A DNA stretch of 64,000 nucleotides from Reclinomonas americana ATCC 50394 (taxonomy: Eukaryota), in the NCBI GenBank assembly GCA_048213135.1, contig PS015014.1, positions 122,973 to 186,972 on the forward strand, given 5' to 3'. Shown here in pieces: positions 6,749 to 62,996 of this stretch. How positions within the stretch are numbered: position 1 is the stretch's first letter; each line of letters starts with the position of its first letter. Both the position numbers and the translations under genes were made by a program. The notes under the pieces are model-generated. The model was not told the origin of the DNA. It searched no databases and saw nothing but the letters and a program-made list of their open reading frames with translations.

Positions 6749-8176
6749 TCACTTCACGGCTCCGGTTCTAGCTTGCTCGTGCTCGTCGTGGTGGTGGTCG
6801 TTACGGTCCCGTCGGATCGCTCCTCCACGTCCTCGTCTACCACCTCCTCCTCTTCTTCCTCGACGATTTGCCTCTTGACCACCACGCGCTTGTACTGCGC
6901 AGCTGCTGTGAGCTGCTGCAGGAACGGCGATGGGCAAGGAGGCGATTCGTGACGCAACTCGGCGGTGAATGGCTGTTCGCACTACGTTGCCGGCTGTGCG
7001 GAAGGAGACGGGGTGTTGCCGCGGGCTCGCACTAGCCTCGCGATGCGGGCTCCGACTTCGGTGCGGGCTCCGGCTGCCGCCTCGCGGACTGCGTTCCGAG
7101 GGGCTGAGGTCGGCGAAGCTGCGCTCCAGCAGCTCCATCTCGTGATCCAGTTCGTTCTCCAGCGTGCCCTCCTCGGGAAGCGGCAGCCGGAAGAGCGTGG
7201 CGGTGCCCGGGAACCTGCCAATCAACAATGAGACGTGCGTGCCATGCAAAAGTTGGCTCACTTGTACGCAGCGCAACTTGAGATTGTGCACCGCCTGGCA
7301 GAACTGCGGGAACGTGAACATGTGGTCGGTCACACTGGCCGTAGCCCGCTGCACCTCATCCTCCACACTCGCAGGCGTCGCCGATTCACCTGTGAAACAA
7401 AGCAGTCAGTACCTCGCCGAAAAGACACCCACATGCAGCACGACGAAACCTCGCGCGCGCCGAATGTGTCTGACCAAGTGCCGCAGCTCCGTGGCCTCCA
7501 ACTTGCCGTCACCCTGCACCAACGCACCAATGGTGAGCGTTTCCCCCCTACTACAATTGTTTTCGAACACGCAACATTCACGTCGTACACCTGCGCACCA
7601 CCACGCGGGCATCAGCACAAAGCAGAACAGGGAGGGGAGGGGAGGGAAGCAGACGCAACTCGGAAAATGTACTGCAGACGATCCTCACTGAGATCGGCGT
7701 CCGAGTCAGGTGCACGAGGATCGACAGCCGCCAACCCTGCGCGAGAGTGGTGTGAGCAGCGTGAAGAGACTCCGTTGTGAGCCACCACCACTCGCACCCA
7801 GCAGAAACTCGTTGGCATCAATAGATCCACTGCGGTCAAGATCAAACGCGGCAAAGTACTGCGCTCATGGCGTGAGTGAGAGCACAGACACACAGAGTGA
7901 GAGACAACTCATTGCATCATCACTCACACGCGGGCAGTACTTGCTGTTCACACCCCAGTGCACCATGAGACGAGTAAAGTCCGCCAGCTGCATCTCTGGG
8001 CGACCATCAGTGGCCCACAAGAACGCGCTGTGCGATTCTCGAGTGTGTAAGAGAGAGAGAGAGTGAAGATGTGTGTGTGCGCGCGAGAGAGAAAGACTCA
8101 ACTCGCGTGCTTTCTCCAGCTCCTCGCCAGTGAGCACCTGGAAGGGAGCTGCAGCTTCGATGCCCGATGAGGCCAT
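6749..8176 (-). CDS. EF-hand calcium-binding protein with RS/P-rich tail
   Basis: EF loops FDLDRSGSIDANEF and YDVNGDGKLEATEL; the second is assembled via a 15-nt exon at 7576-7590. The 3' end is uncertain. Confidence 0.7.
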
Positions 8177-8245
8177 GGTGTTGGCGTGAGTGAGTGACGC
8201 AAAATGACAACATGAAATGCACACAGGACAACGTTGTTCACTCAT

Positions 8246-8740
8246 TCACAGGGTGTGCTGGCGAGAGGAGGAGGAGTCACGGAGATGAAGAGCAATGGCC
8301 ACGACAAGCAGCAGCGCAAAGAAGCCCGTTTGCGCCCAATACATCGCAAAGACAGAGCTGACAGCGGCCAAGTCGGCCGACACGGTGACTGCGACCAGGC
8401 CGAGTACAGTCACCGACAAGGCGGTGAGTGCGACGGGGACAGCGGCCTTGTTGCGCGCTGCGTAGAGGAACAGGATGGCGTAGTTGATGACACAAAACGA
8501 GATGATCTTGTCTTGGTAGGCGTAGAATGGGGTGTCGTAGTACACAAAGAGCAGCGGGATCTTGAGGCTGAAGAAGTGCGCGGTGGCCATGAGGTAGAAG
8601 AAGGCCACGGAGATGAGGAGCAAAAGGCGGAGGAGAGGCGCGGGTGGTGTCTTCTCCGAGGCCTTTTTCGAGGGGCGGGAGAGGAGAATGGGCAGGCCGA
8701 GAGAGGTGGCCACGAGGGCGGCGAACAGTGCGGTCTCCAT
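8246..8740 (-). CDS. Small multi-pass membrane protein (gene A, intronless, 164 aa)
   Basis: Clean ORF with about 5 hydrophobic segments and GC-rich codon usage. A decayed paralog lies at 9505-9833. Confidence 0.7.
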   Translation of the reverse strand: METALFAALVATSLGLPILLSRPSKKASEKTPPAPLLRLLLLISVAFFYLMATAHFFSLKIPLLFVYYDTPFYAYQDKIISFCVINYAILFLYAARNKAAVPVALTALSVTVLGLVAVTVSADLAAVSSVFAMYWAQTGFFALLLVVAIALHLRDSSSSRQHTL

Positions 8741-59354: not shown

Positions 59355-60507
59355 GGATGCTCTCACACACAGCAAAGAAGAGAGGGCAGAGAGAAGAAGA
59401 AGGAGAGAGAGAGAGGCGCGTGCCGACTCCACCCCACAAACAACCACACGGGAAAAAGAGAAAAATCGCGCGCGATCAGCTCTCTCTGTTTGCAGGTCAG
59501 ATTTTTGATTTGCGACGGACGTTTTGTCCGGGTTGTGTGGCGCGGTTGTTCCGAGAGGCTTGGTGACAAAAAACTTGAGGTCTCGTCCTCCTCCTCGTCT
59601 GGTGCCTCCACCTGCAACCCGCACTCTGCATATTATGCGAAGCAGGTTGAAATACAAATTTATCGCAGCGCGTGCGTCTGAATTCGAACAAACGCGCACG
59701 CGCGGACGCGCACGGCTGCATTCGCCACTACGCCGGGTGCATCTGCCTGGTGCATACCACCACCACCTGGAAGAGCTGCAGGTGGGAGGGGAGCATCCTG
59801 GCAGAAGAAAATGTCGTTCGGTAAAACTGGATGTTCGGAGTGTGTCTTGAGCTATGAACGTCGGACCCAACAATTGCACGTCTCGAGAAGCTGCGGATAG
59901 ATAGATGGTGTGAAACGCCACGAGAGTAGAGTGTAGCGCACGTTCTTCTCGATGTGGGGTGGGCGGGGTGCCGGAATGAATCATGCTGCCGAGCAGGGGA
60001 GAACCGCGCCGCGGCTTTCGAAGCGGTTGCAGCAACTTCGCGCCTTGACGCCCCGGAAGAAAGTCGCCCACTGATGAATTCGAAGGGGGGAGCAACACAA
60101 CCGATCAGAGGCGCAAGTGGCCAGGTTCCAGCGGGAGCACGTACACAGCTGAAGCGCTGGTGGTGTGCGCACGTGCGATCCCGATTTTTTCGATATCACG
60201 ATCGCGTCTCGAACTCACCCGACGGTAGATCGGCGAGTGCACACTTGTCGTACAAGGCTGGGGTCCGTACGTGTCACTCGTCAGGACCGCGTGCAACGGG
60301 AACTACCGGTACCGGCGATCGCTGCGGAATGAATACAGATCAACGATCTCTGTGCATGCACGAGCATGATCTATCTCCGTTCGCGCTCTACACCGCACAT
60401 GCAAACCCTCTCCTCACACCCACTCACATGGATACAACCTCCGCCAGCGAAGCCCCAAAATCCATTCATCGACTGATGCACGAGCACAATCACCGAGCAT
60501 CCCATCA

Positions 60508-62996
60508 ATGCTGTGGCGCGTTGTAACCTCGGTGTTCCGCAACACCGCGCCGTGCGTTCCACCCCTCGCTGTGGCGGAACTCTCCTTCGTTGAACTCACA
60601 CTCGTCTCCTCACACAGTTCGGCGCCGGTGTCGCCCTCCACTGGCGTGATCATGCAGGTGACGTACAGATGAGGAAAAAGGTTACCCTCGCTCCTCTCTC
60701 TTTCTCCCTCTCTCTCTCCCGTTTCGCATCTGCCTCGCCGTACTGGCTTGCTCCATAGTGTGTGTGAGTGTGTGTGTGTGTGTGGGCATGTCGTTCATGA
60801 GCGAGGCCACCGTCACCAGTGTGCCTGTCTTTTCCTGCCCTCCCCTGTCCGTGTCAGGCACATGCATTCTTACCATCAGTCACCCCGCAGCTGATGCGCC
60901 CCGCTGGTGCTGTGCGCTACTTTGCCGCTGCTCCGAATGTCATTGAGATCCGCATGCCGGGTGTGTGTGTGACGCGCACTGCTCCTTCCTCCCTCCTGTG
61001 CGTCACTCTGACTCACTCCTTGCGCAGCGCTCTCGCCCACAATGTCACAGGGCAACATTGTGTCGTGGAAGAAGAAAGTCGGCGGTGCGCAGCGTGTGCT
61101 TGCGTTTTCGCGCAGTGTCTGTTGTTGACTGTCTTTGGTGTGCAGATGAGATCAAGCAGGGTGAGATCATTGCCGAGATTGAGGTTTGTTTCTTGTTCTC
61201 TTCGTGCTGGCCGCTGTTTGCGAATACCTAAACGATTGCGTGCAGACGGACAAGGCCACGCTGGACTACGAGTCGCCAGAGGATGGGTTTATGGCGCAGC
61301 ATGTCAAGCCTGCTGGCACACAAGAAGTCCCCGTTGGCGATGTTTTGTCATTCTCTTCGTCATTCCACCGCCACTCGTTCGTCTCTTGCTCACTGGTGAC
61401 CGACCGCCGCAGCTCATTGCGTTGATGGTGGAGAATGCTGCTGATGTGGCTACGGTGGAGAAGGGTGGTGCAGCGAAGCCTGCCGCCGCTGCCGCTGCCG
61501 CTCCGGCTGCTCCGGCTGCTGCTGCTGCTGCCCCGGCTGCTGCTGCTGCTCCGGCTGCCGCCGCCGCTGCTGCTTCTGCGTCTGGTTTGACGCATATCTT
61601 CTTCGCTTAATGTACAGCAGGCTGCGGAAGCACTGACACCTCTCGATTGGCAGCAGGTGGTCGCGTGGCGGCGACTCCCTTGGCCAAGAAGCTGGCCGCC
61701 GACTCGGGCATCAGCATCTCGTCGGTGCCTGGAACCGGTCCGTCTGGTCGTGTGGTTGCTGCGGACGTGAGAGAGTTCAAGCGTTGCGTACTTTATTCTC
61801 GTGTGTCTTTGCGCTGCGAGTCTCGAGTATTAGTTGACCGACACGTGCGCGTGCGTGTAGCCTCTGCTGCTCCTGCCGCCGCCGCTGCCGCTGCCGCCCC
61901 TGCTCCTGCTGCTCCGGCTCCTCCGTGCGTCGCCTGCTCTTTTCTTCAGCCCACTCCCCCTCTCATTCTCTTACATGGCAACTGACGAGCAGGGCCGCCG
62001 CCGCCGCTGCCGCTGCCGCTGCTGCGGGTTACACCGACTTGCCTCTGACCAACATGCGCAAGGTGATTGCCGACCGCCTGGTCCAGTCCAAGCAACAGAT
62101 TCCGCACTACTACTTGACCGTGAGCTGCAACGTCGACTCTCTGTTGAAGTTTCGTCAATCGCTTCCCGTCTCTCGCACAATGTGACTCTCTGACGAACAG
62201 TTTTTCTCATCATGCTCAGGCTGCGCGCGGAGCTGAACGCTGCCGGTGGTGAGGACTACAAGTTGTCGGTCAACGACTTTATTGTGAAGGCTGCTGCCTT
62301 GGCGTGCCGCAAGGTGCCGGCAGTGAATTCATCGTGGCTCGGCAACGCCATTCGTCAGTACGACTACGTGGACGTGAGCGTTGCTGTCAGCACACCCAGT
62401 GGACTGATTACGCCCATTCTGAAGGACGCCGACCGCAAGGTAGTTCTTCTCCCGCTGCTTCTCGTCGTCTCCGTTCTAGTATCCCACTCGGCAACTGTAG
62501 GGCCTGGCCACCTTGTCGAACGAGATGAAGGTGCTGGCAGAAAAGGCGCGCAACAACAAGCTGACACCACCAGAGTTCCAGGTCTGTTGAATATTTTGCA
62601 TTGTGCATTATGCCTGTGTCGTCTCATCGTCTATGCCTTTATGCAGGGTGGCACATTCACGATCAGCAACCTCGGCATGTTTGGCATCAAGCAGTTCACC
62701 GCCGTGATCAATCCGCCGCAGTCGTGCATTCTGGCGGTTGGTGGAAGCGAGAAGACAGTGGTGGTGAACCCGAAGGCCAAGTTGCGTGACACACAGAATG
62801 CCGTGTCGGGTGAGTGTTGAATCCCTGGCGGCTCATCGCCCGTGGCCACAGGGATGGTGAGAGCCCCTACACGACGGCGACGTTGATGAACGTGACGCTC
62901 TCTTGCGATCACCGTGTTGTGGATGGTGCTGTCGGCGCACAGTGGCTGCAGCACTTCAAGTCCTACGTGGAGGATCCACTCAAGATGCTCTTGTAG
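60508..62996 (+). CDS. DLAT: Mitochondrial pyruvate dehydrogenase E2 (dihydrolipoamide acetyltransferase), single lipoyl domain; start uncertain
   Basis: [57 protein letters not shown] and [11 protein letters not shown]. Confidence 0.95.

Follow-up and report, generated by a model that had tools for sequence, protein, structure and literature searches.

A class of 5' splice sites with the intronic signal displaced by one base in a 64-kb window of the Reclinomonas americana draft genome

A total of 64,000 nucleotides from the draft assembly of Reclinomonas americana ATCC 50394 (GCA_048213135.1, contig PS015014.1, positions 122,973 to 186,972 of the forward strand) were used for the analysis. 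This whole stretch is called the window; positions are counted from its first letter, and all counts given below come from this one 64-kb window. The scaffold is eukaryotic, has a G+C content of about 57%, is dense with short introns and is interrupted by 14 runs of N, the shortest of 20 N. Its genes include RPS3A, DLAT and a gene for an EF-hand protein, in which two kinds of 5' splice site (donor) are mixed: ordinary donors such as GTGCGT and GTGAGT, and donors such as GTTGCGT. The latter, here called slid donors, are the subject of this study. For counting, donors with G at +5 were classed as ordinary and donors with T at +3 and G at +6 but no G at +5 were classed as slid; slid donors reading GTTG[CA]G are referred to as the core.

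Introns and donor classes in the window

Genes were predicted with a self-trained Viterbi gene finder that used a 3-periodic coding model and, as its only intron rule, GT...AG; a second run added a donor hexamer table learnt iteratively and an acceptor matrix. The exon-side weights of this model favour G at -1 for every donor, and the model is therefore biased against the claim, made in a preliminary description of this DNA, that slid donors lack a G at -1. Because the model also has flaws (some genes are fused, some calls are antisense, and one or more donors are misplaced, as at 7785, 12 nt from GTGCGA at 7797), counts are additionally given for a filtered set. This set contains the 125 of 204 introns that are 45-140 nt long, carry a YTVAY branch-like motif 8-45 nt before their end and finish with a YAG acceptor.

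Analysis of all 204 introns revealed 105 ordinary, 41 slid and 58 other donors, and the filtered set held 79, 26 and 20, respectively. The 41 slid donors, at which the intronic consensus lies one base further in (G at +6, mostly with U at +7, and none at +5), comprise 30 core donors and 11 of other GTTNNG sequence. Slid and ordinary donors occur together within genes, the slid ones accounting for four of six introns in RPS3A, five of seven in the EF-hand gene and four of 13 in DLAT. Consistent with the preliminary description, which regarded these donors as a mainstream class and looked for an enrichment of G at +6 among donors with T at +3, 41 of the 61 donors with T at +3 have G at +6 without G at +5.

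In the run with the learnt table, the commonest predicted donor hexamer was GTTGCG (26), followed by GTGAGT (22) and GTGCGT (21). GTTGCG thus represents 26 of 204 predicted donors, against about 1% of all GT hexamers. The bare hexamer is not enriched in the window, since 76 occurrences were seen with 63.2 +/- 8.0 expected and 7 of 100 shuffles reached 76; inside gene models, 26 of its 52 same-strand occurrences are donors. The enrichment of GTTGCG is positional, not compositional. The motif-free run predicted 105 introns, five with GTTGCG and five with GTGAGT.

All 22 donors listed in the preliminary description were found with the motif, coordinate and strand given there, together with a GTTTCGT reported near 7448 (its G lies at 7449), and the bases at -1 of the 22 were the same as reported (A 12, T 6, C 4, G 0). 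The gene finder selected 21 of the 22 as donors. The donor at 19706 was not reproduced, the model continuing instead to a stop at 19680. Members of the class beyond that list were found at 4512, 4063, 32425, 31161, 32856, 62781, 63452 and 61342 and, with G at -1, at 63687 and 33024.

A further run with a canonical-only donor matrix penalised GTTGCG by about 7.7 nats and replaced all but two of the GTTGCG donors. The run is too severe to count as a test of slid donors, and it illustrates how predictors fail. Slid donors would mislead standard gene finders. Since the canonical-only matrix discarded nearly all GTTGCG donors in the window, published or automatic annotation of genomes of this kind may contain systematic errors at slid introns.

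Junctions fixed outside the gene model

Constraints independent of the gene model fixed the junctions of eight slid donors, four in RPS3A, two in DLAT and two in the EF-hand gene, and no testable donor failed. The spliced RPS3A model encodes 247 amino acids and has no gap at any of its six junctions when compared with eight homologues. The DLAT model encodes 481 amino acids and was also aligned with eight homologues. RPS3A and DLAT junctions were gap-free when GT-AG introns were cut directly before the GU. Moving the cut one base downstream, which would create UU...AGN introns, was considered and rejected. The codon spliced at 11718 (A/AG) encodes lysine, which is present in eight of eight homologues, and the later cut would change it to arginine; the later cut would also leave 3' ends without a constant dinucleotide. 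The GT-AG reading therefore stands. The preliminary description considered the frame firm in RPS3A, DLAT and AP5S1. Colinearity with homologues bore this out for RPS3A and DLAT, while the identity of AP5S1 was not confirmed: its 102-amino-acid exon had no Pfam match, and of 227 candidate homologues none scored at E<=0.01.

The EF-hand gene spans 8176-6900 on the minus strand. Its canonical loop, DVNGDGKLEATEL, judged by the PROSITE EF-hand pattern, is rebuilt only by joining the microexon 7590-7576 across the donor at 7575. The microexon, 15 nt long and on the minus strand, encodes VYDVN, the start of the loop, and has a GTTGCGT-type intron on either side.

The 5' half of RPS3A is found at 11390-11981 on the plus strand and the 3' half at 13307-13805 on the minus strand, the latter in a 757-bp contig (13049-13805) between N runs. 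Because the two halves, although on opposite strands, splice into one colinear protein, this contig is probably mis-oriented in the scaffold. The nearest named relative of the RPS3A protein is that of the jakobid Seculamonas ecuadoriensis, with 83% identity over a 60-amino-acid exon, and two transcript-derived proteins are 85-87% identical. A metagenome scan with the RPS3A exon yielded 17 loci and no close relative; the genomic loci among them were green-alga-like RPS3A with 52-85% identity. In green-alga-like RPS3A (loci L016, L015, L012 and L013) an intron lies between the K and I codons, two bases from the 11718 intron, which lies within the K codon; the algal and 11718 introns could represent a conserved or a slid position.

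Among the ungapped DLAT junctions is that of the plus-strand donor at 62440 (AAG/GTAGTT), which has neither +5 G nor +6 G. Real donors thus occur outside the two classes as well.

Comparison of intron bodies revealed no difference in general make-up between the two classes. The median intron length was 71 nt for slid and 72 nt for ordinary introns, the median distance from branch A to acceptor was 18.5 and 19 nt, respectively, and CTCAC, CTCAT and CTGAC motifs occurred in both. The slid introns are genuine GT-AG introns of the major spliceosome, with ordinary lengths, branch sites and acceptors. U12-type introns, which have an RTATCCTT donor with a TCCTTAAC branch site, offer a likeness in being a second sequence-distinct donor class beside the major one. 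They were rejected as an explanation, since the donors here are GTTGCGT and both the branch motifs and the branch distances are those of ordinary introns.

Displacement of the donor signal by one base

The base at -1 was found to depend on donor class, as the preliminary description had proposed. G occupies -1 in 77 of 105 ordinary donors and in one of 30 core donors (Fisher p = 1.3e-12); in the filtered set the counts are 63 of 79 and one of 19 (p = 1.6e-9). Among the other slid donors, five of 11 have G at -1, and among donors with T at +3 that retain G at +5 (GTTTG...), eight of 13 do. The absence of G at -1 from slid donors therefore holds as a strong tendency in the core and not as the rule initially put forward, the additional donors at 63687 and 33024 both having G at this position. 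Core donors have A 15, T 9, C 5 and G 1 at -1. This distribution is similar to that at -2 of ordinary donors (A 31, T 32, C 21, G 21; chi-square p = 0.07 for all introns and 0.2 for the filtered set) and differs from that at ordinary -1 (p = 1e-11). In the core, the last base of the exon plays the -2 role, with A favoured and G not needed.

On the intron side, positions +4, +6, +7 and +8 of slid donors mirror +3, +5, +6 and +7 of ordinary donors. G is present at slid +4 in 30 of 41 and at ordinary +3 in 70 of 105, T at slid +7 in 29 of 41 and at ordinary +6 in 75 of 105, and G at slid +8 in 16 of 41 and at ordinary +7 in 37 of 105. These counts agree, position by position, with the earlier view of the slid motif as a normal donor with one extra T, by which the +5 G and +6 T move to +6 and +7. 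When written as 8-mers, (A/T)G/GTGCGT and (A/T)/GTTGCGT differ solely in the base facing C8 of U1, which is G in the ordinary and U in the slid donor. The class exists and is abundant, with exact junctions in eight cases, a class-dependent -1 base and a motif equivalent to the ordinary one.

Ordinary donors have no G at +4 (0/105), with A, C and T about equal there. Such a +4 profile is unusual if the U1 5' end is of human type.

Recognition of the slid donors

The explanation that we favour, with a probability of roughly one half, is that one U1 reads both donor classes in the same register, slid donors being shifted so that C9 lies on the +1 G. U1 would recognise the motif with C9 paired to the intron +1 G, C8 mismatched and the last base of the exon acting as the usual -2. 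The catalytic spliceosome would next cut before the only GU, and the extra U would be looped out when U6 takes over. Given the insistence of the class on GCG, this organism probably has a U1 5' end unlike the human one, for instance carrying G opposite the C. The register of U1, its sequence and the bulge formed with U6 are all inferred.

Human '+1 shifted register' 5' splice sites were reportedly described by Roca and Krainer in 2009, and human single-nucleotide bulge registers are said to have been described by Roca et al. in 2012. The human shifted-register sites resemble the slid donors in belonging to GU-AG introns of U2 type, in having a base other than G (often A) at -1 and in being cut at the GU. 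They also share one additional base behind the GU, which puts the G and U of the AAGU or GCGU block at +6 and +7, with U1 one position over. In Tan et al. 2016, the model shifted-register oligonucleotide is ACA/GUCAAGUAUA (Table 2, PMC4856993), and the shifted register and the single-base bulges at +2/+3 are presented as experimentally established in human cells and rare. The same paper counts 68 predicted (54 curated) bulge sites at +2/+3 and 51 (36) at +3 among 201,541 human 5' splice sites, and puts all validated non-canonical registers at 1.5% (PMC4856993). Two differences separate the human shifted-register sites from the slid donors. They are rare in human, whereas slid donors make up about 20% of predicted introns here, including most RPS3A introns; and their core is AAG, whereas here it is GCG, which human-type U1 cannot pair, the register here being read from the sequence. 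The architecture is the same as that of human shifted or bulged sites, and is newly found at about one intron in five and with a different favoured core. So far, non-canonical U1 registers have been met only as rare exceptions in human genes. Use of a slid motif by about one-fifth of the donors of a genome, highly expressed ribosomal protein genes included, would show that such a register can grow into a normal element of the splicing code. Such a genome would also be a natural system in which to study cut-site choice by U1, U6 and their proteins.

U1 pairing was calculated by ViennaRNA duplex folding with a human-type U1 5' end, taken from PMC4856993, and 1200 GT sites from the same genes were used as decoys. 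Nearest-neighbour energies ignore U1C, U1-70K and LUC7, and the pairing results are therefore weak evidence. With human-type U1 the shifted register, with +1 G on C9, was predicted for all three filtered GTTGAGT donors and was also more stable than the canonical register in two GTTGCG donors. Several other results weigh against our favoured explanation. Most GTTGCG donors form essentially no duplex with human-type U1; the mean duplex energy of filtered slid donors is -2.4 kcal/mol, compared with -6.4 kcal/mol for ordinary donors; and the area under the curve (AUC) against decoys is 0.41 for slid and 0.845 for ordinary donors. Sixteen variants at U1 positions 5-6 never raised the slid AUC above 0.67, and none was convincing, G at position 5 helping a little (0.58-0.61). 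C is present at slid +5 in 30 of 41 donors, compared with 35 of 105 at ordinary +4 (p = 1.6e-5), which a simple slide does not predict and where a standard U1 would prefer A. The slid -2 position also differs somewhat from ordinary -3 (p = 0.02-0.05). Furthermore, most of the 41 slid donors rest on the gene model, whose learnt hexamer table can reinforce itself, and the members at 6958, 17226, 38628, 9582, 45650 and 13418 are doubtful.

The shifted register put forward in the preliminary description is accordingly upheld by the donor statistics, in which core -1 behaves like ordinary -2, and is not upheld for a standard U1 of human type, with which GTTGCG pairs no better than decoys. The simplest version, a standard U1 that does no more than shift, disagrees with these duplex models. 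That the class insists on GCG and that ordinary donors use GTGCGT and GTGAGT equally point to a retuned U1 5' end, a second U1, or a protein or U6 that carries much of the specificity. The initial idea of variant U1 or U6 RNAs or of altered U1C or LUC7 is, if anything, needed. A search of the 64-kb window for small nuclear RNA genes gave no Rfam match at gathering thresholds, and at E<=1 only three matches of microRNA models on GT repeats.

A dedicated second U1 variant complementary to A/GUUGCGU, for example with A for C at position 8 and with positions 5-6 matching GCG, is a tentative alternative. It would coexist with the ordinary U1, and the slid donors would be a code reserved for it. It would account for the narrowness of the motif (GTTG[CA]G in 30 of 41 slid donors, GTTGCG in 26), for the C at +5 and for the A at -1 in 15 of 30 core donors, and it agrees with the failure of human-type U1 to outdo decoys and of changes at positions 5-6 to rescue pairing. 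Ordinary donors, however, use GTGCGT (21) about as often as GTGAGT (22), so that one retuned U1 could serve both classes, and members reading GTTGAGT, GTTTCGT and GTTTTGT fit a GCG-specific U1 less well. To our knowledge, moreover, eukaryotes hardly vary in their U1 5' end. We regard as doubtful the broader proposal that this free-living protist lineage uses two parallel mainstream donor codes on its major spliceosome, G/GUGCGU and A/GUUGCGU, the second read by a retuned or duplicated U1 that departs from the near-universal ACUUACCU. If true, the U1 5' end, which is usually regarded as fixed, would count among the evolvable elements of the splicing code.

Canonical-register pairing that flips out one U at +2/+3, the arrangement of the human 'bulge +2/+3' class, is an unlikely explanation for the slid donors as a whole. 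Human bulges at +2/+3 or +3 share with them the single extra U right after GU and the displacement of the downstream consensus by one, and the slid motif does equal the ordinary motif plus one U. A minority of slid donors has G at -1, namely 63687 (CAG/GTTGCGT), 7449 and 33024 (GAG/GTTTCGT), 50999 (CAG/GTTCAGT), 41175 and 6529; in the predicted duplexes of 63687 and 50999 the +1 G is held on C8. This minority may well use the bulge. A bulge costs stability, however, so that G at -1, which the human bulge registers use, should be kept or enriched, and the core avoids it. Canonical pairing of -1 G, +1 G and +2 U with a bulged U was accordingly compatible with 63687 and with five of 11 non-core members, and not with the rest of the core. 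The statistics favour the shifted register over the bulged U, because a bulge keeps the pair between -1 G and C9 and would want G at -1 more.

Recognition that leaves U1 pairing incidental and depends mainly on U6, on U5 or on the reading of UGCGU by a U1-associated protein (U1C or a LUC7 family member) is decidedly unlikely. The predicted U1 pairing is weak, as this explanation would have it, and the class is strong on the intron side and weak on the exon side, which echoes the LUC7-dependent classes in animals and plants outlined in bioRxiv 10.1101/2022.12.07.519539. The 'right-handed' and 'left-handed' classes of that preprint are alike in that one genome has two donor classes that differ in exon-side against intron-side strength; they have one common register, whereas in the slid donors the intronic block is displaced by one base. 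The position-by-position equivalence with ordinary donors is most simply explained by one common reader.

An artefact, in the form of misplaced junctions, homopolymer errors that add a T or a mobile intron family with its own donor, is highly improbable and largely refuted: the draft scaffold with its N gaps, the many junctions that rest on the model, the behaviour of the canonical-only matrix and the in-frame alternatives for many introns speak for it, and the eight junctions fixed by homologues or a motif speak against it. Sequencing error was rejected because a random extra T would not track the last base of the exon. A mobile-intron (introner) family was rejected because intron bodies lack similarity along their length, an all-against-all blastn of the 204 bodies matching only CT/GT low-complexity sequence and tandem gene duplicates. 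In-frame, stop-free alternative GT/AG pairs exist within +/-45 nt for many introns, and among the alternatives listed almost none is donor-like, the exception being an in-frame GTGCGC 27 nt upstream of 44195.

In full-text literature searches, GTTGCG or GUUGCGU was not found as a splice donor. Searches on the shifted register and splice sites yielded no lineage-wide slid class, one tunicate paper merely raising the possibility for its non-canonical introns, and a search on jakobid splice sites found nothing specific. The jakobid Andalucia godoyi is described in its genome report as intron-poor, with introns in 107 of 864 genes (PMC7050145).

Other donors and features of the window

Coordinates of the individual donors are collected in Table 1.

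Table 1. Donors of the slid class in the window. The slash marks the cut; 'additional' marks donors beyond the preliminary list.
Gene	Donor	Position	Intron	Strand	Evidence and remarks
RPS3A	GT/GTTGCGT (-1 T)	11441..11447	11441-11536	+	KKKV/IDPYSRK gap-free, 8 homologues
RPS3A	A/GTTGCGT	11718..11724	11718-11790	+	colinear with homologues
RPS3A	AA/GTTTCGT	11975..11981		+	LVRK/WHTLIE gap-free; acceptor on next contig across N gap (ends 13765, minus)
RPS3A, 3' half	CT/GTTGCGT	13542..13548	13548-13482	-	VEKL/IPEVIG gap-free
DLAT	T/GTTTTGT (slid form of ordinary GTTTGT)	61342..61348		+	gap-free, conserved lipoyl domain; additional
DLAT	C/GTTGCGT	61783..61789	61783-61860	+	Ala/Pro linker, frame alone tested
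DLAT	AA/GTTTCGT	62149..62155	62149-62219	+	NVDSLLK/LRAELN gap-free, catalytic domain
DLAT	A/GTTGCGT	62781..62787		+	variable loop; frame into conserved C-terminus kept; additional
EF-hand gene	A/GTTGCGT	7653..7659	7659-7591	-	upstream of microexon; IFR/VYDVN precedes loop
EF-hand gene	T/GTTGCGT	7569..7575	7575-7514	-	loop DVN/GDGKLEATEL spans junction
EF-hand gene	A/GTTGAGT	8096..8102	8102-8028	-	gene model only; shifted-register fold with human-type U1
EF-hand gene	G/GTTTCGT (-1 G)	7443..7449	7449-7390	-	gene model only
EF-hand gene	A/GTTGCGC	7271..7277	7277-7215	-	gene model only
WD40 gene	T/GTTGCGT	4506..4512		-	gene model only; additional
WD40 gene	A/GTTGAGT	4057..4063		-	gene model, U1 duplex fold; additional
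	T/GTTGCGT	19700..19706		-	claimed donor; motif present; possible acceptor near 18873 across N gap
	C/GTTGCGC	20390..20396	20396-20322	-	gene model
WD40-like gene	A/GTTGCGC	22610..22616	22616-22549	-	gene model
Earlier 'AP5S1', identity unconfirmed	T/GTTGCGT	26699..26705	26705-26644	-	gene model
	A/GTTGCGC	26559..26565	26565-26496	-	gene model
	T/GTTGCGC	32419..32425		-	gene model; additional
	C/GTTGCGT	32118..32124	32124-32044	-	gene model
	T/GTTGCGT	31155..31161		-	gene model; additional
	G/GTTTCGT (-1 G)	33018..33024		-	gene model; additional
	T/GTTGCGT	32850..32856		-	gene model; additional
	C/GTTGCGC	29194..29200	29194-29262	+	gene model
	A/GTTGCGT	35457..35463	35457-35533	+	survives canonical-only donor matrix
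	A/GTTGCGT	36169..36175		+	gene model; acceptor uncertain (model: 36287)
LRR gene	A/GTTGCGT	44195..44201	44195-44251	+	gene model; in-frame GTGCGC 27 nt upstream
LRR gene	T/GTTGCGT	44688..44694	44688-44755	+	gene model
Repeat-protein gene	A/GTTGCGC	54481..54487		+	gene model; acceptor uncertain: 54526 or 42 nt further
	CAG/GTTGCGT	63681..63687		-	gene model only; sole GTTG[CA]G donor with -1 G
	A/GTTGAGT	63446..63452		-	gene model, U1 duplex fold; additional

About 830 nt downstream of 19706, on the far side of a (GA)n tract and an N gap, lies a site resembling a branch plus acceptor. The segment 18873-19706 (minus strand, about 830 nt) is purine-rich, contains the (GA)n microsatellite and the N gap, and separates a GRAM-like N-terminal part from a proline-rich open frame. 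Both parts may belong to a single WBP2-like gene, in which the segment would be one long intron.

The exon between the donors at 63687 and 63452 gave two homologue matches, the better of which was a bacterial-type repeat protein whose similarity was chance-like and of no use for placing the junctions.

A very large repeat protein is encoded at 46341-56000 on the plus strand, with one exon of about 110 amino acids per repeat and introns of 65-108 nt in one common phase. Nearly all of these paralogous introns have ordinary donors; 54481 stands out with GTTGCGC, and 50999 carries GTTCAGT.

Two tandem gene duplications, at 8249-10426 (minus) and 38985-42922 (plus), have copies with near-identical introns. 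The introns shared between copies include a 49-nt intron with the odd donor GTAACC, found at 40488 and 42774, and a 69-nt stretch that is 95.7% identical between the introns at 10040 and 8899.

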